Source: an uncultured Phycisphaerales bacterium (lineage in GTDB: Bacteria > Planctomycetota > Phycisphaerae > Sedimentisphaerales > Anaerobacaceae). Taken from it: a DNA stretch of 64,000 nucleotides. Shown here piece by piece: positions 877-64,000 of the stretch (positions within the stretch are counted from its first letter, which is position 1; each line of letters starts with the position of its first letter). The stretch covers positions 1,568,001 through 1,632,000 of the forward strand of contig OY970359.1 in the NCBI GenBank assembly GCA_963718665.1. Direction: 5' to 3'. The translations under genes were made by a program, and so were the position numbers. Under the pieces are notes generated by a model. It saw only the letters and a list, made by a program, of their open reading frames with translations, was not told where the DNA came from and searched no databases.

Positions 877-1046
877 CCTCTGTGCTCTCTGTGTCCTCGG
901 TGGCTAAAAAACCGTGAAACCTGTGTAATCTGTGGCTAACAAAAAAACAGCGTTATTTTGCGTTAATCAGCGTCTGAAAAAAAACTCTGCGGTCTCTGCG
1001 TTCTCCGCGGTAAAAAAACAGTGAAATCTGTGTAATCCGTGGTTAT
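877..1046. repeat. Stack of five 9-10-nt-period three-unit arms separated by A-runs
   Basis: ctctgtgct-ctctgtgtc-ctcggtggc; ccgtgaaa-cctgtgtaa-tctgtggc; cagcgttatt-ttgcgttaat-cagcgtc; ctctgcggt-ctctgcgtt-ctccgcggt; cagtgaaa-tctgtgtaa-tccgtggt. Confidence 0.8.
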
Positions 1047-4823: not shown

Positions 4824-6296
4824 ATGGAAAATCGAGTATCGAATATTGAACAGGCCCGAGAGGGAAAGTTACGCGCGATAAGAGAAATGGGTATTGACCC
4901 ATACGGCGGCAGGTACGATTGCGCAGAGCCGGCGGCGGATACCAAGGCGCGATATAAAGACCAGAAGACAGAAGACGGAGGACAGAAGACAGAGGACGAA
5001 CAACAAAGGGCGAGGTGTGCAGGCAGAATAGTGCTGTTAAGAGATATCGGGAAACTCATATTTATTACATTGAGGGACAGCTCAGGCCCAATACAGGTTG
5101 GTTTGAGCAAAAGCTTGCTGGATTCGAAGTGGAGCTTTGTGAAGCTGCTTGAGCTTGGGGACATTATCGGGGCGTCGGGCGGCCTGGGCAAGACGAAGAC
5201 GGGCGAGATAACGATATGGGCGGACGAGGTTGTGCTGCTGAGCAAGTCGCTGATGCAGCCGCCGGAGAAGTGGCACGGTCTTGCGGACATAGATTTGCGA
5301 TACAGGCAGCGATACGTTGACCTGTGGGCGAACCCTGATGTGATGGAGCTGTTCAGGAAGCGAATCGCGATATTGCGGACGGTGAGGGAGTATTTGACGG
5401 GCCGCGGGTTTATGGAAGTCGAGACGCCGATGATGCAGACGATAGCGGGCGGCGCGGCGGCGAAGCCATTTATAACGCATCATAATTCGCTTGATATGGA
5501 TTTATACTTGAGGATTGCGCCGGAGCTGTTTTTGAAACGGCTGCTTGTGGGCGGGATGGAGAAGGTTTTCGAGATAAACCGCAACTTCCGCAACGAGGGG
5601 CTGAGCACGAGGCATAACCCGGAATTTACGATGCTGGAATTGTACCAGGCGTACGCCGACTACAATATTATGATGGATTTGACGGAAGAACTGATTTGTC
5701 TTCTGGTGGAGAAATACTGCAAAGACAACAAGACGATGTTCGGCGAAAAGAGCGTTGATTTTGCGCGGCCGTGGAAGCGGGCGAAATACGCGGAGCTTTT
5801 GAAGGAATACGCCGGATGCGATATTGCGGATATCGGCGGTATTCGCAAAAAGGCGGAGTTGTTGAAGATTGACCATAAGAATATGGACGACGCGGTGGTA
5901 ATCAACGAGGTTTTCGAGCAGACGGTTGAGGAGCATTTGACCAACCCGACGTTTGTGATTGATTACCCGGCGGCGCTGTGTCCCCTGACGAAGCGGAAGA
6001 AAGGGCAGCCCGAGGTTGCGGAGCGATTCGAGATGTATATTGCGGGGATGGAATTGGCCAACGCCTATACGGAGCTGAACGACCCGGCGGTGCAGGAGGA
6101 AAATTTCCGGCAGCAGCTTCGGGGACAAAAAGAGACGATGGCGACGATGGACCATGATTTTGTGACTGCGTTGAGGTACGGGATGCCGCCCGCCGGCGGT
6201 CTGGGAATCGGTATAGACCGGCTTGTAATGATATTGACCGGCGCGACGAGCATCAGGGACGTTGTGCTGTTTCCCCTTTTAAAGCCGACAAAATAG
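4824..6296 (+). CDS. lysS: Lysyl-tRNA synthetase, class II
   Basis: RYRQRYVDL, GGAAAKPFITHHN, FRNEG, HNPEF, GLGIGIDRL. Confidence 0.97.
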   Translation: MENRVSNIEQAREGKLRAIREMGIDPYGGRYDCAEPAADTKARYKDQKTEDGGQKTEDEQQRARCAGRIVLLRDIGKLIFITLRDSSGPIQVGLSKSLLDSKWSFVKLLELGDIIGASGGLGKTKTGEITIWADEVVLLSKSLMQPPEKWHGLADIDLRYRQRYVDLWANPDVMELFRKRIAILRTVREYLTGRGFMEVETPMMQTIAGGAAAKPFITHHNSLDMDLYLRIAPELFLKRLLVGGMEKVFEINRNFRNEGLSTRHNPEFTMLELYQAYADYNIMMDLTEELICLLVEKYCKDNKTMFGEKSVDFARPWKRAKYAELLKEYAGCDIADIGGIRKKAELLKIDHKNMDDAVVINEVFEQTVEEHLTNPTFVIDYPAALCPLTKRKKGQPEVAERFEMYIAGMELANAYTELNDPAVQEENFRQQLRGQKETMATMDHDFVTALRYGMPPAGGLGIGIDRLVMILTGATSIRDVVLFPLLKPTK

Positions 6297-6303
6297 TGAA
6301 CTC

Positions 6304-6330
6304 ACCGCAGAGACCGCTGAGCACGCAGAG
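6304..6330. repeat. Left arm of 9-nt-period element
   Basis: accgcagag accgctgag cacgcagag. Confidence 0.8.
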
Positions 6331-6367
6331 AATAAAGTAGTAAGAGTCAAAAGCGGGAGGTGCCGAC

Positions 6368-7198
6368 ATGTCAAAATTGTTGGTGATTGACAAAAGTGTT
6401 TTTCATAAAAGTGTTCTTCATAAAGATTTCGCGGAGCAAATCTTTGAGTTTGTCCAAAACCATAAAGTTGTTTTTCCTCATGCCTTGATCGCTGAATGCT
6501 TGATGAGCGAAAATAAGTCGGTAGATTTACTCCGAAGATTTGTTGAATGCGTTAAGTGCGGTGGAGTAATAGGATGGGGTTCGCCGAGTATTTTTCAGCA
6601 TGAAAAACAATCGCATAATCCTACGGTTAGCATCATTAATGAACATGAAACCCAGAAGGCGAGGGAAAGTAATTTGTGTACAGACGAGGGACTTTTAAAA
6701 AGTGAGGCCCGGTTATGCCAACAGCATTATAAACCTCATATTGATTGGTTGCGCAAAATTTCTAAGGCATTCTTCAGTAACGTTAAGACAAAGAAATTAA
6801 TACAAAGATTCATCGGAGAATCTCCTAATAATTGCCAGTTGAGGCGTCTTAAAGATTATGTTGACGCAGTGGATACGTCAAAGTCGAAATTCCTTAGTCA
6901 TTTCGTACCCTATTTGAGTCAGCATACTGAGTTGGATTGGTTTACATGGCACTTGATAAGACTTCATTTTGCTTGGGGTTTGGAGTGGACTTGCAAAAGA
7001 GTGGCAAGCGGGGTGTCATTTGAACGGTTTGACATTTCAAACGATTTTTGGGATATAGAGTATGTCGTATCTTTGTCTCGTGCTGATGGGCTGTTGTCGG
7101 CTGACAGTAGATTGGTCAGACCGTTGGCCAAATCTGCTTATCCTGAAAAAGATGTATTTTCCTGTCTTGAGGAGGTGACGGAAGATTATCGGTGCTAA
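6368..7198 (+). CDS. Hypothetical protein, probable PIN-like nuclease fold
   Basis: N-terminal LVIDKSVF and C-terminal NDFWD...LLSAD acidic pattern; GGGAGG RBS; AT-richer than neighbours. Confidence 0.55.
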   Translation: MSKLLVIDKSVFHKSVLHKDFAEQIFEFVQNHKVVFPHALIAECLMSENKSVDLLRRFVECVKCGGVIGWGSPSIFQHEKQSHNPTVSIINEHETQKARESNLCTDEGLLKSEARLCQQHYKPHIDWLRKISKAFFSNVKTKKLIQRFIGESPNNCQLRRLKDYVDAVDTSKSKFLSHFVPYLSQHTELDWFTWHLIRLHFAWGLEWTCKRVASGVSFERFDISNDFWDIEYVVSLSRADGLLSADSRLVRPLAKSAYPEKDVFSCLEEVTEDYRC

Positions 7199-7217
7199 AG
7201 GCGGATTTTTTTAATTT

Positions 7218-7263
7218 CTCTGTGGTCTCTGTGTGCTCTGTGGCTTAAAATAATCTCTGTGGC
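7218..7263. repeat. Right arm of 9-nt-period element plus one extra unit
   Basis: ctctgtggt ctctgtgtg ctctgtggc ... ctctgtggc. Confidence 0.8.
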
Positions 7264-7269
7264 GGAAAA

Positions 7270-7590
7270 ATGGTAGCGATTAATGAGATAGAACTGTTTG
7301 GTAGGCGGATCGGCGAGGAGTTTGGGGCCGAGAAGGTGATTTTGTTTGGCTCATACGCACAGGGCACGGCCAAACAGGATTCGGATGTTGACCTGCTTAT
7401 AGTCGCTTCATTTGAGGGCAGAAGCGTAGATAAGTCGGTTGAAATCCGGCTCAAACTTCGACCATCGTTTCCCGTTGACCTGCTTGTTCGCACGCCCGAA
7501 AAGATACGTCAGCGTTTAGAGATTGGCGACCAGTTCATAAAAGACATTCTCAAGTGTGGGAAGGTTCTCTATGAAGCCGACAACCTCTGA
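7270..7590 (+). CDS. Minimal nucleotidyltransferase (MNT antitoxin)
   Basis: VILFGSYAQG...DSDVDLLIV motif. Confidence 0.9.
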   Translation: MVAINEIELFGRRIGEEFGAEKVILFGSYAQGTAKQDSDVDLLIVASFEGRSVDKSVEIRLKLRPSFPVDLLVRTPEKIRQRLEIGDQFIKDILKCGKVLYEADNL

Positions 7591-7957
7591 ATGGATTGAA
7601 AAGGCGGAAGGCGACTTTGCGACAATGCAGCGGGAGTCCCGCGCAAGGAAGAATCCCAACTATGACGCAATTTGTTTTCACGCCCAGCAATGTGCGGAGA
7701 AATATCTTAAAGCGCGATTGGCTGAAGCGGACATCTCTTTTGGCAAAGTTCACGACCTCGTAGCGTTACTTAACCAGGTATTAGTTATTCAGCCGGATTG
7801 GGAGGTTTTCCGTGAAGATTTGGCTTATCTTTCTGATTTTGCAGTGAGTTTTCGCTATCCAGGTGAGTCGGCCAATAAGGAATCTGCTCTCGATGCTGTT
7901 AGGAGATGCCGGTTCTTCAGAAAGATTGCTCGCAGTGTTCTTGGTTTGCCGACATAG
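7571..7957 (+). CDS. HEPN domain protein (partner of MNT)
   Basis: WIEKAEGD, ICFHAQQCAEKYLKA, HDL, RYPG; overlaps the MNT stop. Confidence 0.9.
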   Translation: MKPTTSEWIEKAEGDFATMQRESRARKNPNYDAICFHAQQCAEKYLKARLAEADISFGKVHDLVALLNQVLVIQPDWEVFREDLAYLSDFAVSFRYPGESANKESALDAVRRCRFFRKIARSVLGLPT

Positions 7958-8023
7958 ATACGAATATTGTTATTCGACAACGATTAGTGGTATATTACGG
8001 CCAAATAGTAGTTTTATTGATTT

Positions 8024-8091
8024 CTCTGTGTCCTCTTGCCGAAAGGCGTCCCTTACGGGAGTGGCTAAAAAAAATTGTTATTCTCTGTGGC
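8024..8091. repeat. Right arm of 9-nt-period element interrupted by the 24-nt double-hairpin element (8037-8060)
   Basis: ctctgtgtc ctct[tgccgaaaggcgtcccttacggga]gtggct ... ctctgtggc. Confidence 0.75.
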
Positions 8092-8100
8092 TAAAATAAG

Positions 8101-9465
8101 ATGCTGAAGATATTTTTATGGCTGCGATACCTTAGGAAGAGGAGGGTAGTGCTGCTGAGTATCGCAGCGGTTGCGCTTTCGACGGCGCTTCTGGTAGTTG
8201 TCGCCAGCTTATTCAACGGGTTCATAAACGCATTCGAGCAGAGCGCGGTTGACGGCATGGGAGACGTTGTTTTGTCGCCTGGGAAGAATTTCGCGGGATA
8301 CGCAGAGCTTGAAAAGCGATTGGAGGAGATAAAGCAGGTTGAAGCAACAACTGCGACGCTGTCTGCGCAGGGGCTTTTGCATTTAGGCAGAGGTAATGTT
8401 CGGGCGGCGGAGATTTGGGGGATTGAGCCGGCAAAATTCGGCAAGGTGACGGCGTTTGACAAGTCGCTGCTGAAAACAAAACAGGCGACGTCTGCCGGCA
8501 GCGGAGACATTACGGGTTATGTCGGAATAGGGGTCCTTGCTGAGCCGAATGAGAAAACCGATGAGTATGATGTCAACGGCGCGGAAAGGATGATTGGACA
8601 ACAATTCGTAATTACGACTGGTTCGACTTCGCTCACCACGAGCAGTTCGGCGATTGAAGGGAAAGACAAAGAACCCATCGATTCCACTCAGGGCAGGCAG
8701 AAATTCAGGCGCAAGACCATACAGTTTACGATGGCGGACGCCGTATTTACGGGGATTTATTATTTTGACAGCCGGCTGGTGTATTTGCCAATAGAGCAAT
8801 TGAGCAGGGCGATTTTCCCGGATTCGCAGGAACCGGTTGCCGGCAGGATTCAGATTAAACTTCACAAGGGGGCTGACGCGGCCCTTGCGATAGCGCAGAT
8901 TCGCGGCGTGTGGAAGGTTTTCGCTTCGGAGAAACTCGGGTGGGAGGATTACGACATTCGAGCAACAATGATAGAGACCTCCAGGCAGATGCAAAGCCGA
9001 TACATTGCGGAAATTCGCAAGCAGATGGGGGTTTTGCTTTTGATATTCGGCGTGGTGAGCTTGAGCGCGGTGCTTTTGATATTCTGCATTTTTTATATGA
9101 TTGTCGAGACACGCCGCAAAGACATCGCGATAATGAAAAGCTGCGGGGCCGACAGCGGGTCTATCGCGATGATTTTCGTGGGGTTTGGCGCGTTTGTCGG
9201 GATATTAGGGACATTGCTGGGGACCGCAGCCGGGTACGTAGTTACGAAGAACATCAACGGGGTTGAGGGCTGGATAAGGGTTGCGTTCGGCCTGAAGCTG
9301 TGGAAAGCGAGCGTTTATATGTTCAGCAGAATACCGGCTGAAGTTTACTGGCAGGCGGTCTGGTGGATAGTTTTATCGGCGATACTTGGAGCGATGATTG
9401 GCGCGATTATACCGGCATTGTCGGCAGCGATAACGCGGCCCGTGAACGTTCTCAGATACGAATAG
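8101..9465 (+). CDS. LolC/E-like ABC transporter permease
   Basis: N-terminal TM, large periplasmic domain, KDIAIMKSCGA, FtsX-like C-terminus ending PVNVLRYE. Confidence 0.88.
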   Translation: MLKIFLWLRYLRKRRVVLLSIAAVALSTALLVVVASLFNGFINAFEQSAVDGMGDVVLSPGKNFAGYAELEKRLEEIKQVEATTATLSAQGLLHLGRGNVRAAEIWGIEPAKFGKVTAFDKSLLKTKQATSAGSGDITGYVGIGVLAEPNEKTDEYDVNGAERMIGQQFVITTGSTSLTTSSSAIEGKDKEPIDSTQGRQKFRRKTIQFTMADAVFTGIYYFDSRLVYLPIEQLSRAIFPDSQEPVAGRIQIKLHKGADAALAIAQIRGVWKVFASEKLGWEDYDIRATMIETSRQMQSRYIAEIRKQMGVLLLIFGVVSLSAVLLIFCIFYMIVETRRKDIAIMKSCGADSGSIAMIFVGFGAFVGILGTLLGTAAGYVVTKNINGVEGWIRVAFGLKLWKASVYMFSRIPAEVYWQAVWWIVLSAILGAMIGAIIPALSAAITRPVNVLRYE

Positions 9466-16096: not shown

Positions 16097-16212
16097 TTTT
16101 ACTCTCCTATCGGACTGCGGTTACGTTTAATAACACGGGTAAGTGCCTTTATTGCTAAAATATTAGGGTCCATCTGTCAAGAAGATTTATTCGCGATTTT
16201 TTGGGGTTTTCG

Positions 16213-16236
16213 CTTGCCCTGAGCATCGTCGAAGGG
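16213..16236. repeat. REP-like element of the CCCTTCGAC..GCTCAGGGCAAG type
   Basis: cttgccctgagcatcgtcgaaggg; relatives at 56950-56972, 8619-8642, 8674-8697. Confidence 0.65.
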
Positions 16237-16414
16237 TCTGAAAATATGTCGTCGAATTGAAGTTGAAAAAGTCATTATTGACAGCGAAGCAGCGATTACC
16301 TATAACCATTGAAAAAGTAAGTTGCAATGGTGTGTGGGAATACATATACACCGATAATGAAATGCTAATCTTTATAATCTGTGATATGCTTCCGTAAAAG
16401 AGAGGATAAGCGTT

Positions 16415-17182
16415 GTGAACAGAATAACCCTGAAAATACCGGAAGAATCGCCCGACTATGGTGAGTGCTCTGATTTCGTAGTTGGTCAAATTTCCAATAT
16501 CATAAAAAATGCTATAGACACTAAGAACAACCGCATTTTTATTCATACCAACTTAAAGCGAGGCCTACCCTTGGAGAATATCAACAAGGTTGCCGGTCCC
16601 TTTGTTGAAGCGTGGGCACTAGAGAAGTTTGAGGATATCGTTGCTGATCCAAAGAATCAGTATCAACTGATTAATGTCCAAGCAGGTCGAAGATTAGACC
16701 CCTTTGACATTATTCTACAATTCAAACGAAAGAAGAATAACAACCAATACGCATCAGCCAATATCGATGTTAAGGCGACATCGGAAGATATCAAGACATC
16801 AGGCCGAAGCCCCAACATTACCTCATATGCGAGAATTCGGACCGAATACTTGGGGGACCCTGATTATATTTTTGTGATCCTTTCACTTAAACATAGGGTA
16901 TATGGCGAGAGAGAGCCGAAGACTGGGATGACGAACGGTATTATGGAGGTTGTGGGGCAGTCGGTCTATGATTTGAAATTCATCGGTAAATCCGACATTA
17001 GTTACAATCCTGCTTTGGGCACAGGTCAGATTCAAATTCGTGATATCCATTACGTGGAAATTCAACGCCGCACTGCCCGTGAATTCATTAAGATACTTGA
17101 TGAGAAATTCATTCGTTCTCAAGGCAAGGATGTCTGGCTTGAAATGGCACGTAAAAACGAATGGGTTAAAGAGACGGAATGA
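16415..17182 (+). CDS. Putative type II restriction endonuclease
   Basis: PFD...NIDVK PD-(D/E)XK-like motif; coupled to a DNA methyltransferase; AT-richer. Confidence 0.7.
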   Translation: MNRITLKIPEESPDYGECSDFVVGQISNIIKNAIDTKNNRIFIHTNLKRGLPLENINKVAGPFVEAWALEKFEDIVADPKNQYQLINVQAGRRLDPFDIILQFKRKKNNNQYASANIDVKATSEDIKTSGRSPNITSYARIRTEYLGDPDYIFVILSLKHRVYGEREPKTGMTNGIMEVVGQSVYDLKFIGKSDISYNPALGTGQIQIRDIHYVEIQRRTAREFIKILDEKFIRSQGKDVWLEMARKNEWVKETE

Positions 17183-18042
17183 TCAAAACTAACCAGCTTA
17201 TTTGCGGAGACGCTTGTGTTGAGCTTGGTAAACTGCCAAGTGAAAGCGTTGATCTTGTTATCGCCGATCCCCCTTACAACCTTGGCAAAGATTATGGCAA
17301 TAATATAGATCTGAAGGCTTGGCATGAATACGAGGATTTTACCCGTAAATGGTTGTGGGAAATAAAACGCATACTAAAGTCCACAGGGACACTATATGTA
17401 TTTATGGGAGTACGATTCATTTCCAAATTATTTCTGATCCTTGATGAGGAAATGCATTTTATTTTTAACGGATGGATTACATGGCACTACACACAAGGAA
17501 TGGGAAGAAAGCAGGGATTTTCACCTCGCCATGAGGATATTTTATATTTCACTAAGACCGACGATTTTGTTTTCCACTTGGATGACGTAAGAATACCTCA
17601 GAAGTACTATCGCATGCGAAACAATATGCAAGGCGCAAACCCAGGTGATGTATGGGAATTCTCACATGTGCATTTTTGCAGTGCCGAGCGAGAGAAACAT
17701 CCAACACAAAAACCAGAGGCGCTTATCGAGCGAATGATTCTCGCGAGTTCCAGCAAAGGGGATATAGTTATAGATCCGTTTGTCGGGAGTGGAACTACTT
17801 GTCGCGTTTCACAAATTCTTGGTCGCAAATGGGTCGGTATTGATATCAATCCAGCTTATATCGAAATGACAAAAACGAGAATCTCAAAGCCTTACGATGG
17901 GTTTGATTCTTATGATCCACGCACGGAAAGAACTCCTCGCGATCTGCCTTCAATTACGGCCAATAAGCAGATGGTTTTTCTTGAGGAACACGGGAGCAGC
18001 CATTCACACTTCGCTCACAAATCTACGCAGGGCAAGCAGTAG
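17179..18042 (+). CDS. Site-specific DNA methyltransferase, beta class (N4-C/N6-A)
   Basis: DPPY precedes HPTQKP and DPFVGSGT. Confidence 0.93.
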   Translation: MIKTNQLICGDACVELGKLPSESVDLVIADPPYNLGKDYGNNIDLKAWHEYEDFTRKWLWEIKRILKSTGTLYVFMGVRFISKLFLILDEEMHFIFNGWITWHYTQGMGRKQGFSPRHEDILYFTKTDDFVFHLDDVRIPQKYYRMRNNMQGANPGDVWEFSHVHFCSAEREKHPTQKPEALIERMILASSSKGDIVIDPFVGSGTTCRVSQILGRKWVGIDINPAYIEMTKTRISKPYDGFDSYDPRTERTPRDLPSITANKQMVFLEEHGSSHSHFAHKSTQGKQ

Positions 18043-18251
18043 GAAGGCGACAAAATTCGCTATGCGCTAGATGCTGTCCGCGGTCCTATCTTTATCTGGC
18101 CAGCACAAAATCTTGTCCTACTTTGTCTAACAACGTTTTTTAGCTTAAAAATGATACTTAGGCATACTTAGACATAGTTAGACAACAGTATTGAATGAAT
18201 AACTTGGCAGGTAAGTCGACAGCAATAGGAGGCAAGCGTATAATAGCGGCA

Positions 18252-19643
18252 ATGGTAATGGGCAGGGATGACAAGACGTTGTTTGCGAAAGGCGAGCAGG
18301 CGAAGTTAACGGCTGCTGCGCCGTTGGCGGTTCGGATGAGGCCAAGGACCCTCGATGAGTTTGCGGGTCAGCAGCACTTTATCGGCGAAGGGAAACTGTT
18401 GCGGAGGATACTGGAAGCCGACGCATTAAGCAGTTTGATATTTTACGGGCCGCCGGGGGTGGGAAAGACATCGCTGGCAATGGTGATTGCCAACCAGACA
18501 AAGGCGGAATTTCGATATATCAGCGCACCAGCGGCGAGCGTCAAGGATATTCGCGACGTTATAGCTGAGGCGAAAGACCGATTAACATCATCGAGCAAGC
18601 GAACCATATTGTTCATCGATGAAATACACCGTTTCAACCGGGCACAGCAGGACGTGCTTTTGGATGATGTGGAATCGGGGATAGTGATATTCATCGGAGC
18701 GACGACGGAAAACCCGTTTTTTGCGGTCAATTCGCCATTGATAAGCAGAAGCACGGTGTTTTATTTTGAGCCATTAAGCGAAGATGATGTTGTTGGATTA
18801 TTGAAGCGGGCGATAGCGGACAAAGAGCGCGGGCTTGGCAAATACGAGATTGAAGCGGAAGAAAAGGCGTTGAAGTATCTCGCGGCGGTATGCGATGGCG
18901 ACGCAAGGAAGGCGTTAACTGCCCTGGAAGTCGGGATTTTGTCGCAGAAGACAGTTAAAAAGATTAAATTCGATTTTCAGACGGCCAAGGACTCCATTCA
19001 GGGCAAGACAATCGATTATGACCAGACGGGCGATACGCATTATGATTTGGCGAGCGCGTTTCAGAAGAGTATGCGGGGGAGCGACCCGGACGCGACGGTT
19101 TACTGGCTCGCCAGAATGATTGCGGGCGGGGAGGACGTGAGGTTTATCGCCAGAAGAATCGCGGTTTGTGCCGCGGAGGACGTGGGTAACGCGGACCCGA
19201 TAGCGACGGTTTTAGCGGCATCTGCGTTTCAGATTAGCGAATTTGTGGGGCTTCCTGAGGCGCAATTAGCGTTGGCTCAGGCGGCGATTTACGTGGCTTG
19301 TGCGCCGAAATCTAATGCTTCCTCATCGGCGATTGGCAGCGCGATTGGTGATGTTCAAAATGAAAAAACCGTGGCGGTTCCGAAGCATTTGAAGGACAGC
19401 CATTATGCCGCGGCGAAAAAGATGGGTTTTGGCATAGATTATAAGTATCCGCACAGTTTTGAGGGCGGATTTGTGGTGCAGGAATACCTTCCGGGCGGTA
19501 TAAAGAAGAAGTACTATAAGCCGACAGAGCGGGGGTATGAAAAAAATATACGGGGTTATTTACAAAAGCTCGAAATACTGATAAAAGATAACAAGGCCAA
19601 AAGGATTGAAAGTAGCGGCCAGGCGGAGCAGGGTAACGGTTGA
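18252..19643 (+). CDS. rarA: Replication-associated recombination protein A (MgsA/RarA)
   Basis: PLAVRMRP, GPPGVGKT, DEIHRFN, GATTENP, SMRGSDPD; start uncertain. Confidence 0.94.
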   Translation: MVMGRDDKTLFAKGEQAKLTAAAPLAVRMRPRTLDEFAGQQHFIGEGKLLRRILEADALSSLIFYGPPGVGKTSLAMVIANQTKAEFRYISAPAASVKDIRDVIAEAKDRLTSSSKRTILFIDEIHRFNRAQQDVLLDDVESGIVIFIGATTENPFFAVNSPLISRSTVFYFEPLSEDDVVGLLKRAIADKERGLGKYEIEAEEKALKYLAAVCDGDARKALTALEVGILSQKTVKKIKFDFQTAKDSIQGKTIDYDQTGDTHYDLASAFQKSMRGSDPDATVYWLARMIAGGEDVRFIARRIAVCAAEDVGNADPIATVLAASAFQISEFVGLPEAQLALAQAAIYVACAPKSNASSSAIGSAIGDVQNEKTVAVPKHLKDSHYAAAKKMGFGIDYKYPHSFEGGFVVQEYLPGGIKKKYYKPTERGYEKNIRGYLQKLEILIKDNKAKRIESSGQAEQGNG

Positions 19644-21280: not shown

Positions 21281-21343
21281 TACCGCAGAGCACGCTGAGA
21301 CCGCAGAGAAAAAATAAAAATAAAATCCGCGAATCAGGCGGTG
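21281..21343. repeat. 9-nt-period left arm with a degenerate right arm
   Basis: accgcagag cacgctgag accgcagag, A-rich loop, atccgcgaatcaggcggtg. Confidence 0.7.
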
Positions 21344-30733: not shown

Positions 30734-30833
30734 CACCGCAGAAAACCCTCCTTCGCCCATACAACGGACTACGGAGGGCAGGCAACGGAGAACGCTGAGA
30801 AAATTTTTAAATAATGCCCGTGGTCTCCGCGGT
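30734..30833. repeat. 9-nt-period hairpin element with a nested mini-palindrome (30747-30782)
   Basis: accgcagaa..[cctccttcgc...ctacggagggcagg]..cggag aacgctgag, loop, cccgtggt ctccgcggt. Confidence 0.65.
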
Positions 30834-49299: not shown

Positions 49300-49710
49300 T
49301 CATTGGCTCTTACGCAGAATGTCGCGGATATCGGTCAGCAGTATAACCTCAACCGACGGGAGAGCTGGCTCCGATGGCTTTGCTGCTTCATTTCTTTTCA
49401 GGGTGTTGATCGCCTTGACAACCATAAAAATCGCGAAGGCGATGATAACGAAATCAACGACTGTCTGGATAAAATTGCCGTAATTGAGCGTTACCGCGGC
49501 GGTTTTCTCCGTTGCCTCCTTCAGCGTTATGACCCGCTTGCTGAAGTCGATTCCGCCTATAACCAGCCCTATCGGCGGCATTATCACATCGGCCACGAAA
49601 GATGACACGATTTTCCCGAATGCCGCGCCTATCACGATACCAACCGCCATATCTACCACGTTACCCCTGACTGCGAACGTCTTGAATTCCTGTAACCATT
49701 TCATAGCCAT
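49300..49710 (-). CDS. mscL: Large-conductance mechanosensitive channel
   Basis: [26 protein letters not shown]. Confidence 0.96.
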
Positions 49711-49872
49711 CTCCTTTTAATTGATTCGCTTGATATTAAATCACCCGCCGTTTGTTGCGACGTTGAAATGCCGTGGGTAAAGTTTGCTGTTTTTACCGAA
49801 GTTTGTCAATGGCTTTGAGGATAGAACAGGAAAGGTCTTTTGATTATGGCTCAACGGAGGCCGTTGGCTGTG

Positions 49873-51267
49873 TTACTTTTTGCTTTCGAGGACTTTTAAC
49901 ATGTCGGGGTCGATTGCTTTGCCCAACCGTTCAGCGATTTTTATGTGCTTCAGGGCCAGGTCGTAATCCGCTGTTTTGTAATAGGCAAGCCCCAGTGCGT
50001 AATGAGCGTCAGCCATTTTCGGCGCAAGCGCCACGGTTTTCAGATGGCTTTTGATGGCATTCGCGTAGTCGCCTTTCTGGAAATATGCGACGCCAAGCTG
50101 GTAATGAATTTCGGCGTTATCCGGTTTTACGCGGGCGGCCCTGCTGTATTGCTCAATGGCGGCGTCGAAATCGCCTTTGTTGAAATAAACATTGCCGAGA
50201 TTCGCCATCGCCTCGTACATATTCGGATTAACCGCCAGCGCCTTGAGATACGCGTCGATTTCGTTTTCCGGCTGGTTGAGTTTATTGTAGCAGGTGCCCA
50301 TCCCAAGGTATGCCTCGGCGACATTGGAATCAAACCGTATTGCGGCGGTGTATTCGTTTATCGCGTCATTAAACCATTCGCGTCTTTGATATGCGTTGCC
50401 GAGGTTGTAGTGGGATTCTGCATCGTCGGGGCTGATTCTTGTCGCGGCCTGATACTCAGTTATCGCGTCATCCACGCGGTTCTTCAGTAGGTAGATATTG
50501 CCGAGATTCATTCGTGATTCCGCCAGCGACGGGTTGATATAAACGGCCCACTGCATTGAGGCCATCGCCTGGTTGACGTTGTTGATATCTTTGTAAACGT
50601 TGCCGAGGTTATTGAAGAAACAGCCCAGCGCCTGGCGCTTATTCAGGTTGGTCATATAAATAGTGTTGGTTTTGGGGACATTGAACTGCTCAAGATAGTA
50701 GCTGTCGGGGGCGCTGTTGCCCTGGTGTGTGGCCTCGATATTGAATCGTATTTTGCCGTCGTCGTATCTTACGAAGAAATGCCCCGGCACAACTACGCCG
50801 TAGAGAGGCAAACCAAGCCGTTCACCGATAGCCAGGTATAGAACGGACAAGCTCAGGCAATAACCCTGGCGCCTGTCCATAACCGAGTGCAGAAACAGGT
50901 CGTATGGGTCGGTGGCTTTACTGATTGTTTTGAAATTCAATTCATTGAACAGGTAATCGTTGATAATGGGGATTGCCGCAATGCCCATCGGTGCGTTTTT
51001 TGCTTTGAGCCGGCTGCGGATTTCCGTCGCGATATCGTCAAGCTGCTGCTGGTAACGCCTGCCCGCCACCATATCGCTCCACGCCTCGGAGACAATCAAA
51101 GCCGCTGTCCCCAGGTCAATCTGCTCAGGCGGCAGCCGTAACACCTCCTCGATTGATTTGGCGTACAGCCCGTCGAGATTCGCGTTTGCCAATGGCTCAT
51201 CTGCAAGGCAGGGCGTAACGACCAGAACAACAGTCAAACCAATTATTGAAAGCAAAAGCATTTTCAT
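49873..51267 (-). CDS. SirB1/transglutaminase-like domain plus TPR repeats
   Basis: GYCLSLSVLY, PGHFFVRY; C-terminal TPR array. Confidence 0.85.
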   Translation of the reverse strand: MKMLLLSIIGLTVVLVVTPCLADEPLANANLDGLYAKSIEEVLRLPPEQIDLGTAALIVSEAWSDMVAGRRYQQQLDDIATEIRSRLKAKNAPMGIAAIPIINDYLFNELNFKTISKATDPYDLFLHSVMDRRQGYCLSLSVLYLAIGERLGLPLYGVVVPGHFFVRYDDGKIRFNIEATHQGNSAPDSYYLEQFNVPKTNTIYMTNLNKRQALGCFFNNLGNVYKDINNVNQAMASMQWAVYINPSLAESRMNLGNIYLLKNRVDDAITEYQAATRISPDDAESHYNLGNAYQRREWFNDAINEYTAAIRFDSNVAEAYLGMGTCYNKLNQPENEIDAYLKALAVNPNMYEAMANLGNVYFNKGDFDAAIEQYSRAARVKPDNAEIHYQLGVAYFQKGDYANAIKSHLKTVALAPKMADAHYALGLAYYKTADYDLALKHIKIAERLGKAIDPDMLKVLESKK

Positions 51268-60735: not shown

Positions 60736-61953
60736 GGCATAGCGCACAGCGGGCAGCGTATAGTGTTTAGGGGACATTAAAAAACTGCCGCAACTTCAGT
60801 TTTTATAAGTAGTTACAAATCCGTGTCATCTGTGAAATCTGTGGTTGAGACCTTGTTTTTTGTGCATTTTTGTGGCCTAAAAACCACTCTTTTTTCGTGA
60901 CAATTTTTGCTGTAACCTCTTTCCTTATAACGGCTTAAATTCTGGATATGAACAGTCGTATAAAACAAATGTATCAAACAGTTGTATGATACAACTGTTA
61001 TCCATTTTCGCGCAAGTCGAAAACCCTTAGATTCAAAAATTTCAAAATTTTTTTACTCCTTACGCAGTAAGGACTTATCAATTTTGGCCCCATCAGGAAA
61101 TCCCTTAGTTTTCGTCAAAAGCGCGAAGTTCGCGCCATAGGATAGAGGGACCTTGTGGGTAACTCAGGCGGGCAGGCACAACTGATATTAAAAATCAAAA
61201 AGTAAAAGGCAAAAAGACAACGCAAAGCTCAAAAAGGTCTGTGCCGTTCGGCTGGCGAAAGTGTCTACCGAAATGTTTCCGCATTTTTGCTTTTTTATAT
61301 TTAATTTTTGATTTAAGAAGGGGGAGGATATTATGGCAAGTATCACAATCAAAGTTCCAAACTGGTTAGACCGTATCTGCACCTGGCCTGTGATGTTTTA
61401 TCGCAGGCGTAAGTATGGTTACGACTTTCGCAGGATATACCTCGGCGAAGGGGAATGGACGATAGTTGACGCCGATGTCTATTATCGCCTCGGAAATATC
61501 AAATGGTGTTTAAAAGGGCACAAGACAAAACTATACGCCATTGGAGGCGTCAGGAACGAATGCGGAAAAGGAATAGAAATGGTACATTTGCACAGGAAGG
61601 TTGCCAATGCGCCAAAGGGGCAGATTGTTGACCATATAAACGGCGATTCCCTCGACAATCGAAGGGCCAATCTCCGTTTGGCAACACGGTCTCAAAATTG
61701 CCAGAATGCGAAAAAAAGAAAAAATACCTCATCGCGATTCATTGGCGTTAGTTTTCAGAAATCGCATAAAAAATGGTGGGCATATATTAGCTTTGAGAGA
61801 AAAAGAACGCATTTGGGCTATTTTGACAATGAAATCGAAGCTGCCCGCGCTTATGACGCAGCCGCCAGGAAGTATTACGGCGAATTCGCAAGGTTGAATT
61901 TTCCGGAGGAAAATTCACTATCCGCTACTCGCTGAACGCTGTCCGCTGTATAT
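60736..61953. mobile_element. Candidate element carrying the HNH-AP2 gene, bounded by inverted heptamer arrays
   Basis: (AGCGnnn)x4 at 60741-60770 and (nnnCGCT)x4 at 61918-61947. Confidence 0.45.
61333..61935 (+). CDS. HNH endonuclease with C-terminal AP2 DNA-binding domain
   Basis: LHR...[28 protein letters not shown]...[15 protein letters not shown]...[10 protein letters not shown]. Confidence 0.92.
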
Positions 61954-61985: not shown

Positions 61986-62023
61986 CAGCGTAAATCGGCG
62001 TTAATCTGCGTTAATCTGCGTCT
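61986..62023. repeat. 10-nt-period arm (AATCTGCGTT type)
   Basis: cagcgta aatcggcgtt aatctgcgtt aatctgcgtc. Confidence 0.75.
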
Positions 62024-62108: not shown

Positions 62109-62211
62109 ACCGCTGAGCACGCGGAAACCGCTGAGACACGGAGCGATAGTGACGAGCCCGCTTCGGAAAAGAATATAAAGTAAACTCTGCGTCCTCTGCG
62201 ATCTTTGCGGT
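62109..62211. repeat. Empty 9-nt-period hairpin element 5' of the tRNA
   Basis: accgctgag cacgcggaa accgctgag ... ctctgcgtc ctctgcgat ctttgcggt. Confidence 0.8.
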
Positions 62212-62219
62212 GAAAAACC

Positions 62220-62302
62220 GGCTGAGTGGCGGAATGGCAGACGCTGGGGACTTAAAATCCCCTGTCCTCACGGACGTATGGGTTCGACTCCCATCTCGGC
62301 CA
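62220..62302 (+). tRNA. tRNA-Leu(TAA)
   Basis: Acceptor GGCTGAG/CTCGGCC plus A; anticodon arm GGGGA-CTTAAAA-TCCCC; long variable arm; T arm ATGGG-TTCGACT-CCCAT; CCA not encoded. Confidence 0.95.
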
Positions 62303-62307
62303 ATTTT

Positions 62308-62376
62308 ACCGCGGAGTTCGCAGAGACCGCGGAGAAAAAATAAAATAACCTCTGCGCTCTCCGCGTGCTCTGCGGT
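62308..62376. repeat. Empty 9-nt-period hairpin element 3' of the tRNA
   Basis: accgcggag ttcgcagag accgcggag, 15-nt A-rich loop, ctctgcgct ctccgcgtg ctctgcggt. Confidence 0.85.
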
Positions 62377-63738: not shown

Positions 63739-64000
63739 ATTAAACCACAGATTTCACAGATTACTCAGATAAGAGCGGTGGTGTTTGACCTGGGCGAGAC
63801 CCTGCTGAATTTCGGCAAGTTGGAGACGATGCAGATCTTTAGGCAAAGCGCGAGGTTGACTTACGATTACCTGAAGAGCCACGGTCAGCCCGCGGGTAGT
63901 TTCTGGTGGTATTTTATTCGCAACATTGCTGCAATCCAGGTGAGGACTTTGTGGGGGAATATTACGGGCAGAGATTTCGATGCTTTATCGCTTTTGAAAA
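63739..64000 (+). CDS. HAD-superfamily hydrolase, 5' part
   Basis: IRAVVFDLGETLLNF motif I; open to the window end; start codon unclear (ATT 63739 or GTG 63778). Confidence 0.7.
   Translation, partial: MKPQISQITQIRAVVFDLGETLLNFGKLETMQIFRQSARLTYDYLKSHGQPAGSFWWYFIRNIAAIQVRTLWGNITGRDFDALSLLK

Follow-up and report, generated by a model that had tools for sequence, protein, structure and literature searches.

The cassettes of integrons are promoter-poor single genes with imperfect palindromic attC sites that are kept by structure; they stand in tandem arrays, and toxin-antitoxin (TA) genes are frequent among their cargo. The pdif modules of Acinetobacter plasmids hold accessory genes between inverted 28-bp XerC/D sites and have no recombinase of their own, and the minimal mobile elements of Neisseria are accessory genes placed between conserved flanking genes, with no specific arms and with alternative cargo per site. 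In this work, we analysed positions 6304-8091 of a 64,000-nucleotide stretch (the window) from an uncultured Phycisphaerales bacterium, where a gene for a PIN-like protein and an MNT-HEPN gene pair are set among inverted arms of 9-nt repeat units, between lysS and a lolE-like gene. Three further kinds of element have to be compared with it. Mobile insertion cassettes (MICs) are passenger genes without transposase bracketed by two inverted repeats (PMC3913671). The PeSL promoter-terminator cassettes of T4-like phages are described as short repeats that flank non-essential ORFans in plastic regions, with insertion, deletion and replacement by recombination (PMC2839356, PMC4122927). Repetitive extragenic palindromes (REPs) are abundant, often located between co-directional genes, mosaic, and variable in copy number between species (PMC3733652). 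We found no description of the arrayed elements reported here in the open-access literature searched, and nothing there on miniature inverted-repeat elements in Phycisphaerae; a search for REPs in Planctomycetes gave general REP papers only.

We read positions 6304-8091, with moderate confidence, as a two-cassette array of a non-autonomous family of the MIC type or of the type of miniature inverted-repeat transposable elements (MITEs), with inverted-repeat ends at which cargo is swapped. The cassette family is spread through Sedimentisphaerales (Phycisphaerae, Planctomycetota). As in MIC231 of Bacillus cereus, mic-qnrD and the cargo-carrying MITE composites TIME-COMP, non-transposase passengers lie within inverted repeats and cargo-less MITE-like forms coexist with them. 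The ends of MICs are, however, simple repeats of 20-40 bp, whereas the ends found here are 46-60 bp long with four 9-nt iterons; moreover, the present family is conserved across the order, occurs in viral contigs and at many chromosomal sites, and carries mainly small defence, TA or nuclease genes. The single-gene units and the tandem arrays with one site per cassette resemble integron cassettes, but no intI was found beside the cassettes, they are dispersed over at least seven loci rather than gathered on one platform, and their arms consist of iterons with a conserved core. Compared with pdif modules and minimal mobile elements, the present units are set apart by iterated 9-nt units.

The lysS-lolE insertion and its arms

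The genome to which the window belongs (G000; other G-numbers denote relatives) is a single contig of 2.61 Mb, and its LysS is 89-90% identical to LysS of metagenome-assembled genomes (MAGs) labelled Sedimentisphaerales. At the locus, lysS is followed by an array, the PIN-like open reading frame (ORF), a second array, the MNT-HEPN genes, a third array and the lolE-like gene (Table 1), with a GC content of 0.39-0.43 over positions 6250-7300 against 0.50-0.58 in the flanks. The arms with a 9-nt period that an earlier note on this DNA had placed at 6304-6330, 7218 and 8024-8091 around these genes are present in the sequence: Tandem Repeats Finder reported a period of 9 with 3.0 copies at 7217-7243, as well as at 985-1011. 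With at most one mismatch allowed, the window has 16 matches to the two-unit pattern CTCTGYGNNCTCTGYG, where 0.06 would be expected, and none of 100 shuffles reached that number.

Table 1. Coordinates of the features in the window
Feature	Position	Strand	Remarks
Two solitary forward arrays	878..1009		CTCTGTG type at 878-902, CTCNGCG type at 985-1009; each followed by a GTGAAAYCTGTGTAATCYGTGG module
lysS (lysyl-tRNA synthetase), conserved left flank	4824..6296	+	Pfam tRNA-synt_2, 4.6e-95, plus OB fold
Left arm, CTCNGCG family, R orientation	6304..6330		Three 9-nt units, then AATAAAG
Cassette 1 cargo, predicted PIN-fold protein with helical insertion	6368..7198	+	276 aa, GC 0.40
CTCTGTG-type arm, F orientation	7218..7263		Closes cassette 1; 6 nt ahead of MNT
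Cassette 2 cargo, MNT-type nucleotidyltransferase (antitoxin-like)	7270..7590	+	Pfam NTP_transf_2 (PF01909), 1.4e-12
Cassette 2 cargo, HEPN-domain protein	7556..7957	+	Pfam HEPN (PF05168), 4.4e-22
CTCTGTG-type arm, F orientation	8024..8091		Right end of the two-cassette array
lolE-like FtsX permease, conserved right flank	8101..9465	+	Pfam FtsX, 1e-11
Solitary R arm, CTCNGCG family	21284..21308		10 nt past a stop codon
Cargo-less inverted pairs, CTCNGCG type	62109..62374		Flank tRNA-Leu (62220-62302)

The cores of the left arm (CGCAGAG, CGCTGAG and CGCAGAG, at 6306-6330) start 10 nt past the lysS stop codon. This arm is devoid of the outer unit that ends of the CTCTGTG type carry, and its shape is that of the left half of the hairpins formed by CTCNGCG arrays elsewhere in G000. 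The arm at 7218 opens with three CTCTGTG cores (7218-7242) and GC, after which 10 nt of A-rich sequence lead to the outer unit CTCTGTGGC at 7255-7263, and the same arrangement of this arm with the MNT 5' end is present in G009 and G001. In the arm at 8024, one CTCTGTG core (8024-8030) precedes a degenerate unit into which a GC-rich stem intrudes; the outer unit is CTCTGTGGC at 8083-8091, which stops 9 nt short of the lolE-like ATG (8101). We also noticed a comparable GC-rich stem within a CTTCGTG-type array upstream of a gene of the HNH_3 + AP2 family (HNH-AP2) at G000 position 1059343. The best reading of the whole is R-[PIN-like]-F-[MNT-HEPN]-F, where R and F stand for inverted and forward arrays and both right-hand arms are of the canonical CTCTGTG type; since the left arm belongs to the sister family CTCNGCG, the two-cassette unit is a hybrid. 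Single contigs that join 7249 to 8038 (run X4, 34 nt overlap) and 7252 to 8012 (run X2, 25 nt) would remove MNT-HEPN. These joints were not used, because the overlaps are short and repeat-borne; they may be an assembly artefact or derive from another organism.

The 276-aa product of the ORF at 6368-7198 had no match in Pfam, NCBIfam or PADLOC, and Foldseek gave nothing at E < 0.001 for its AlphaFold2 model (pLDDT 83). With VIA-align, nearly all of the top 36 rows were PIN, VapC, Nob1 or HARP chains (Z 6.0-8.2, root-mean-square deviation 2.5-3.8 Å, 103-145 residues aligned), and D8, E43, D226, D229 and D246 are invariant across 12 PIN-like homologues. Thus, the label of PIN-like, proposed earlier from the letters of the sequence, holds for the model, which predicts a PIN fold with conserved acidic residues. 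Elsewhere in the order, 13 of 200 genomes contain homologues, and an R-oriented array lies directly upstream at 4 of 12 PIN-like loci (G000 counted). The MNT and HEPN ORFs of the second cassette overlap by 35 nt, and PADLOC matched the MNT ORF to PDC-S09 (3.4e-11); judged by their domain matches, these adjacent genes form a predicted MNT-HEPN toxin-antitoxin pair as such pairs are defined.

In its canonical form, the CTCTGTG arm consists of 9-nt iterons that make up a terminal inverted repeat of 46-60 bp. From the outside towards the cargo, it has first the outer unit GCCACAGAG, often with TTA before it, and continues with a T-rich spacer of 5-20 nt, TAGC and (CACAGAGNN)x3 facing the cargo, while the right end is mirrored. 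All 18 units compared have the termini GCCACAGAG...CTCTGTGGC, with a single mismatch at one right end, and most also have the mirrored inner triple units. We also noted that TTAGCCACA resembles a DnaA box. The variable spacer, earlier taken for a trinucleotide, is more aptly described as 2 nt separating cores of 7 nt. The accompanying argument for recognition by protein is supported: at the nine variable positions, cognate hairpin arms pair at 3.0 and non-cognate arms at 3.9, so base pairing is not the conserved feature, and selection for an RNA or DNA hairpin was rejected for lack of covariation between cognate arms.

A loose regular expression requiring at least two units detected 102 arrays in G000, 77 of them intergenic on a crude home-made ORF map (the caller marks 87% of the genome as coding), and arrays are present in 62 of 2219 intergenic regions. 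The 41 CTCTGTG arrays form no R-loop-F pairs and are followed by GCTAAAAAA and one more CTCTGTGGC. CTCNGCG arrays form 11 R-loop-F pairs with loops of 16-27 nt and the consensus TTTAC(CGCNGAGNN)x3, AT-rich loop, (CTCNGCGNN)x3GTGAA. Five other genomes contain 10-70 CTCNGCG arrays each, almost all as cargo-less pairs; the 70 arrays of G014, against 10-16 in four congeners (G006, G015, G017 and G020), suggest a recent burst of a cargo-less hairpin element.

Cassettes, cargo and alleles in relatives

The relatives examined are draft MAGs of other species, so that junctions were compared over 7-25% divergence. A CTCTGTG search pattern requiring three units plus GCT was found in 34 of 41 genomes, with no match for the reversed-pattern controls; 150 of its 505 matches were listed. 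The exact motif is present in all 23 same-genus genomes and, elsewhere in the order, in 10 of 17. Among the viral contigs of IMG/VR, 77 stretches with GC of 0.46-0.63 match the pattern, for example L163-L165, L204-L206 (a single contig of 44.5 kb) and L232. One viral contig has more than 10 arrays between small genes.

Among the matches listed, we compared the orientation of consecutive CTCTGTG-type arrays on one contig in 17 Sedimentisphaerales genomes, with coordinates entered by hand. At the spacing of a single gene (0.6-1.6 kb), 17 pairs were R..F and none F..R, with four RR and four FF. The bias was also seen between 0.3 and 4 kb (R..F 19, F..R 3, RR 8, FF 12; two-sided binomial p 0.00086 for R..F versus F..R), and pairs more than 4 kb apart were distributed as R..F 16, F..R 23, RR 18 and FF 28. 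Base composition was measured in 21 R..F brackets, namely 18 fetched pairs, the unit after aroE in G009 and two units of G000. Interior GC was below that of the flanks in all 21 (mean 0.368 versus 0.488), whereas five control pairs in F..R or same orientation had interior GC of 0.476-0.537 and contained ordinary genes, one HNH-AP2 copy excepted. The earlier note had proposed a test for enrichment of arms around low-GC genes; all brackets measured have low-GC interiors, and in G000 as a whole the enrichment is weak. The note's picture of inverted arms in filled, empty and orphan forms that delimit nuclease and TA genes holds for the CTCTGTG-type arms once relatives are considered; the left arm at 6304 and the hairpins of the window belong to the sister family.

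Between the arms are one, seldom two or three, small low-GC genes. We scanned 31 cargo ORFs, about half of which had no match at all; transposase, integrase or resolvase Pfam families were matched by 0 of the 31, with the same half matching nothing. PDDEXK_3 (GxxExxY) was found in four ORFs and is the most frequent cargo of CTCTGTG-type cassettes in relatives. T5orf172/MUG113 with HNH_repeat was found in three, FRG in two, and SIR2-like (SIR2_2) in two, weakly in Pfam and in one case backed by PADLOC. The remaining cargo comprises DUF5677, FGE-sulfatase, a PDC-S31 candidate (PADLOC), the PIN-like gene, MNT-HEPN and about a dozen ORFs without family. The names given by PADLOC among the cargo are SIR2, PDC-S31 and PDC-S09.

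Some small genes lie between repeats of other types. The sole PDDEXK_3 (GxxExxY) gene of G000 (1519990-1520379) is bracketed by units of CTTCGCG/CACGAAG type (arrays at 1519977, 1520391 and 1520442). Genes for four-helix-bundle proteins (23S_rRNA_IVP) stand singly between housekeeping genes at L137 (G003:C120) and at G000 395754, 1235622 and 140582, and in G003 (L097) an ORF resembling such a gene splits lolE1/lolE2, with inverted low-complexity repeats of ATGTCCAAT type on both sides. Another arm family may play the same role around four-helix-bundle genes. We found nothing in the open-access literature searched on repeats flanking four-helix-bundle or GxxExxY genes.

Comparison of orthologous junctions provided filled and empty forms of the same sites. 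Six filled loci with both flanks placed adjacent in G000 define four sites, at G000 972435|972440 (site 1), 61440|61449 (site 2), 706054|706056 (site 3) and 385195|385179 (site 4); for the remaining filled loci, one flank or none could be placed. At these four sites the flanks are 1-15 nt apart in G000 by BLAST coordinates, with neither arms nor cargo, and the intergenic region at sites 1-3 is about 30 nt long. According to the earlier note, the idea would fall if cargo-less relatives had breakpoints unrelated to the arms; at all four sites the cargo-less genome is also without arms. Because arms and gene are present or absent together, they look like parts of a dispersed gene-cassette system. 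The cassettes are inserted in very short intergenic regions, after stop or before start codons of housekeeping genes, and leave the genes intact. The earlier note had likewise placed elements after stop codons or beside a tRNA; the tRNA beside the hairpins of the window is tRNA-Leu.

The same site may hold different cargo. Site 1 carries T5orf172 fragments in G009 and SIR2-like plus PDDEXK_3 in G011, with a common left arm, and site 2 carries T5orf172 in G003 and PDDEXK_3 plus a 194-aa ORF in G023, the outer junctions being identical. G000 (FRG-domain ORF, ~49680-50606), G006, G008 and G033 all carry cargo at a fifth site. Conversely, the same cargo may be found at different sites: T5orf172 is present at three, one of them in another family of the order, and the series of PIN-like gene, arm and MNT follows lysS in G000 and aroE in G009. 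The PIN-like homologue of G009 (28-31% identical) is bracketed by an inverted four-unit arm and a forward arm, beyond which part of the MNT 5' end has remained, and the aroE junction of G000 is empty. Between the two genomes, the last ~100 nt of the PIN ORF, the arm and the MNT start are ~88% identical in DNA, a patch of ~250 nt centred on the F array, with the rest of the PIN protein at ~30%. Tandem units share a single array at their inner border, as R-X-F-Y-F in G000 and G011 and as R-X-R-Y-F in G023 and G034. Arm pairs without cargo were seen in G019, where 53 nt separate the arms, and in G034, where 18 nt do.

The lysS-lolE junction itself is polymorphic among 13 same-genus relatives. In seven of them lolE directly follows lysS, across a 22-nt spacer with no repeat (G006 and G009), other repeats (G007 and G004), a solitary inverted CTCTGTG arm (G011) or hairpins of CACAAAG/CACGAAG units (G003 and G005); five genomes have other genes after lysS. 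In two other samples, contigs of relatives join 6283 to 8100 across 59 other letters, which is a cargo-less allele.

Candidate enzymes and competing explanations

Movement of the units, its mechanism and its independence from any integrase are what we infer in the following. A trans-acting protein that reads the iterons would insert whole units at new sites, as for MICs and MITEs, and the inserted unit would run TTAGCCACAGAG...CTCTGTGGCTAA end to end. Once the arms are placed, cargo would be exchanged through recombination between arms, as with the PeSL motifs of T4-like phages. Such arm-to-arm exchange would explain both the identical junctions with different cargo and the single arrays between tandem cassettes.

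Several families were considered as the mobilising enzyme. HNH-AP2 genes (~200 aa; 28 matches in G000, 0-32 in relatives, several with internal stops) were rejected as a required partner, as there are none in several array-rich genomes (G034 has 39 arrays and no HNH-AP2); a CTCTGTG array lies directly upstream of 3 of ~25 full copies in G000. They look like a large family of free-standing homing-endonuclease-like genes. About 10 G000 copies have a GC-rich leader of ~60 nt, starting GGGTCCCCTG, directly before the ribosome-binding site (for example at 278601, 301448, 666267, 929042, 1715791 and 2219394), which could form a structured RNA or serve as a target site. GC-rich hairpin repeats flank three Y1_Tnp-like (HUH) ORFs, each of ~150 aa (G000 442788-443231, 1274075-1274527 and 210799-211257, all on the minus strand); this arrangement resembles a REPtron and differs from the 9-nt arrays. 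These proteins, similar to REP-associated tyrosine transposases (RAYTs), were rejected, as the hairpins at their genes are of another kind and the homologue is missing from G034 and six same-genus genomes. Also rejected was an insertion sequence (IS) of 1044 bp, present in seven identical G000 copies (e.g. 501130-502170) with a 328-aa DDE_Tnp_1 transposase, 8-bp target duplications and ends that start TGCTCTGTAGAAA: the CTCTGTA within its ends is oriented the other way, and 3 of the 41 genomes contain it. It is the only multi-copy IS of G000, and we found no cognate IS sharing the cassette ends, unlike what is known for MICs; ISs are often missing from MAGs. No rve was found in G000. The seven PF00589 matches of G000 are all outside the window, as the earlier note had it that the window contains no recombinase, and none is near lysS or the site-5 cassettes. 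The tyrosine recombinases universal in the 41 genomes are just two Xer-like genes, and these are also the only relatives there of a 276-aa tyrosine integrase encoded between two arrays (F..R) in one viral contig, which was rejected.

Several observations weigh against the MIC/MITE-like reading. Among the candidates checked, no mobilising enzyme that tracks the arrays was found. Support for a target-site duplication, a trait of MICs, is weak: the 8-nt flanks match at 5.0 of 8 positions for cognate and 4.47 for non-cognate pairs (permutation p 0.035), and flanks matching at 7 or more occur in 3 of 18 units, with one perfect 8-mer (G008, site 3) and two at 7. At the locus itself, the arms at 6306 and 7218 agree at 21 of 27 positions against a mean of 22.7 for random R/F arms, and were rejected as a cognate pair, since their match is no better than that of random arm pairs. 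G013 carries an MNT-HEPN pair (89% identical) at the lysS-lolE junction with no array and no PIN gene, and the low-GC insertion at 16201-18290 of the window, which G006 and G007 lack, is not bordered by 9-nt arrays. Within G000, neighbouring array pairs are R..F in 2 of 19, most arrays are solitary or cargo-less hairpins and lie beside ordinary genes of normal GC (thyX, HAD hydrolase, LysR, Ppnp and LpxR), and the enrichment of low-GC neighbours is weak (odds ratio 1.2-2.2; p varies between 0.68 and 0.003 with the threshold chosen and with the exclusion of short regions). Finally, an exact motif that is kept across the order and in viral contigs of varied GC fits a motif with a function recognised by the host at least as well as it fits a selfish repeat.

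This last point leads to the explanation that we place second, although we consider it unlikely: the arrays could be regulatory punctuation read by the host, R being terminator-like and F promoter- or leader-like, shared by phages, with genes shuffled by homologous recombination only and no dedicated transposition. It would account for the distribution of the motif (23/23, 10/17 and the 77 viral stretches) and for the position of arrays in co-directional intergenic regions of G000, where R arrays are nearer the upstream stop in 15 of 23 cases and F arrays nearer the downstream start in 14 of 19. Furthermore, 50 of the 62 array-bearing regions are co-directional, and F-type arrays are located 10-60 nt ahead of many start codons, including those of MNT and three HNH-AP2 genes. 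The identical outer junctions with different cargo, the conserved patch shared by G000 and G009, and the behaviour of PeSLs in T4-like phages (PMC2839356, PMC4122927) are consistent with it too. However, the empty orthologous sites are without any array, so homologous recombination between arms cannot explain the first arrival. Each end mirrors the other exactly, down to the outer unit, which is unexpected for a promoter and a terminator, and, unlike conserved regulatory sites, array content turns over fully at an identity of 90-92%, with entirely different repeat modules in the orthologous intergenic regions of G006 and G007. A scan for sigma-70 and terminator consensus placed no site within the arms, bearing in mind that promoters of this phylum may differ.

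Two further explanations share the third place in our ranking. Our first reading was that of repeats unrelated to the cargo, similar to REPs or bacterial interspersed mosaic elements (BIMEs); it was dropped as the main explanation after array brackets and empty sites had been found in relatives. Such repeats, with fast turnover, and foreign genes would share permissive regions, and bracketing would be a by-product. The housekeeping neighbours of most G000 arrays, the weak low-GC enrichment, the array-free insertion at 16201-18290, the range of 10-70 CTCNGCG arrays among five congeners, and a lysS-lolE junction with repeats only (G011, G003, G005, G007 and G004), cargo only (G013) or neither (G006 and G009) all speak in its favour. 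Nevertheless, the excess of R..F over F..R at single-gene spacing among the matches listed, the low GC of 21/21 interiors against controls of normal GC, the joint absence of arms and cargo at four sites, and the R arrays upstream of PIN-like homologues make it improbable. We see an equally slim chance that the arms are attC- or pdif-like sites for the Xer-like pair or for an unrecognised enzyme, with circular units of cargo plus one arm joining an existing arm. Tandem units with one shared array, Xer-like recombinases in 41/41 genomes, the viral integrase between two arrays, and the lack of selection for pairing between cognate arms, expected where proteins do the reading, would fit such a system, but no integrase was found beside any cassette examined or in the window, the arms look by eye unlike the dif and attC consensus, empty sites have no resident arm, and the viral integrase is a single F..R case.

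With the MIC/MITE-like reading ranked first and the PeSL-like regulatory motif second, there is also a more far-reaching proposal, possible in our view and still rather doubtful. Sedimentisphaerales and their phages would share an undescribed, dispersed cassette system for small defence and toxin genes, in which inverted-repeat ends of four 9-nt iterons are read by an enzyme other than IntI, RAYT, HNH-AP2 or a known IS transposase; as part of the same proposal, the cassettes would form an integron-like network across the chromosome, with entry at array-free sites after stop codons and subsequent swapping of cargo between arm-bearing sites.

Other arrays of the window and meaning of the cassettes

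Besides the lysS-lolE insertion, the window contains arrays without cargo (Table 1). The orphan stacks noted before at 877-1046 correspond to two forward arrays, and the module content of this intergenic region is entirely different in G006. Four places had been listed as cargo-less hairpins. We confirmed 62308-62376 as a clean inverted pair and 62109-62211 as an inverted pair with a GC-rich insert; 21281-21343 has one arm, an A-rich loop and a degenerate partner, and 30734-30833 holds isolated single units, which are not convincing. The counterpart of 21284-21308 in G006 is another repeat, and at the places flanking tRNA-Leu both G006 and G007 have hairpins of other 9-nt units. An Rfam scan of the window returned tRNA-Leu only, and an HNH-AP2 copy (61333-61917, plus strand) lies just upstream of the tRNA-Leu hairpins. 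Modules with a 9-10-nt period (GCGTTAATCT repeats and GTGTAAATCYGTG type) accompany arrays in either orientation at 948-973, 60817-60843, 61988-62021, 63746-63770 and in many other regions. Together, arrays and low-complexity modules make up BIME-like mosaics that differ between species within one intergenic region. The insertion at 16201-18290 (GC 0.42) has two ORFs, one of 255 aa and one of 287 aa that is DNA methyltransferase-like and contains a DPPY motif, and is probably a type II restriction-modification system.

The cargo-less arm pairs of G019 and G034, together with the 11 CTCNGCG pairs of G000, fit the description of a MITE as a short non-coding inverted-repeat element. The arrays differ from REPs in that the GTAG/CGTC tag, as defined in PMC3733652, was not found; the hairpins end TTTACCGC...GCGGTGAA/GCGGTAAA. 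They also differ from the REP/RAYT arrangement, as the Y1-like genes of G000 are not flanked by arrays and REPs carry no cargo genes. PeSLs are direct repeats of one phage genome with demonstrated promoter and terminator activity, whereas the arms reported here are mirror-inverted, chromosomal and dispersed.

If our reading holds, the arms provide a sequence signature for mining new defence genes, with about half of the cargo having no family, and they raise the question of which protein reads the 9-nt iterons. They may also explain why GxxExxY and four-helix-bundle genes recur alone between low-complexity repeats. On the same condition, an uncultured and environmentally common order of planctomycetes has a simple cassette system without a recognisable recombinase, in which single defence, TA or nuclease genes are placed between housekeeping genes and reshuffled among species. 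This would be a third style of bacterial gene cassette, alongside integrons and pdif modules.

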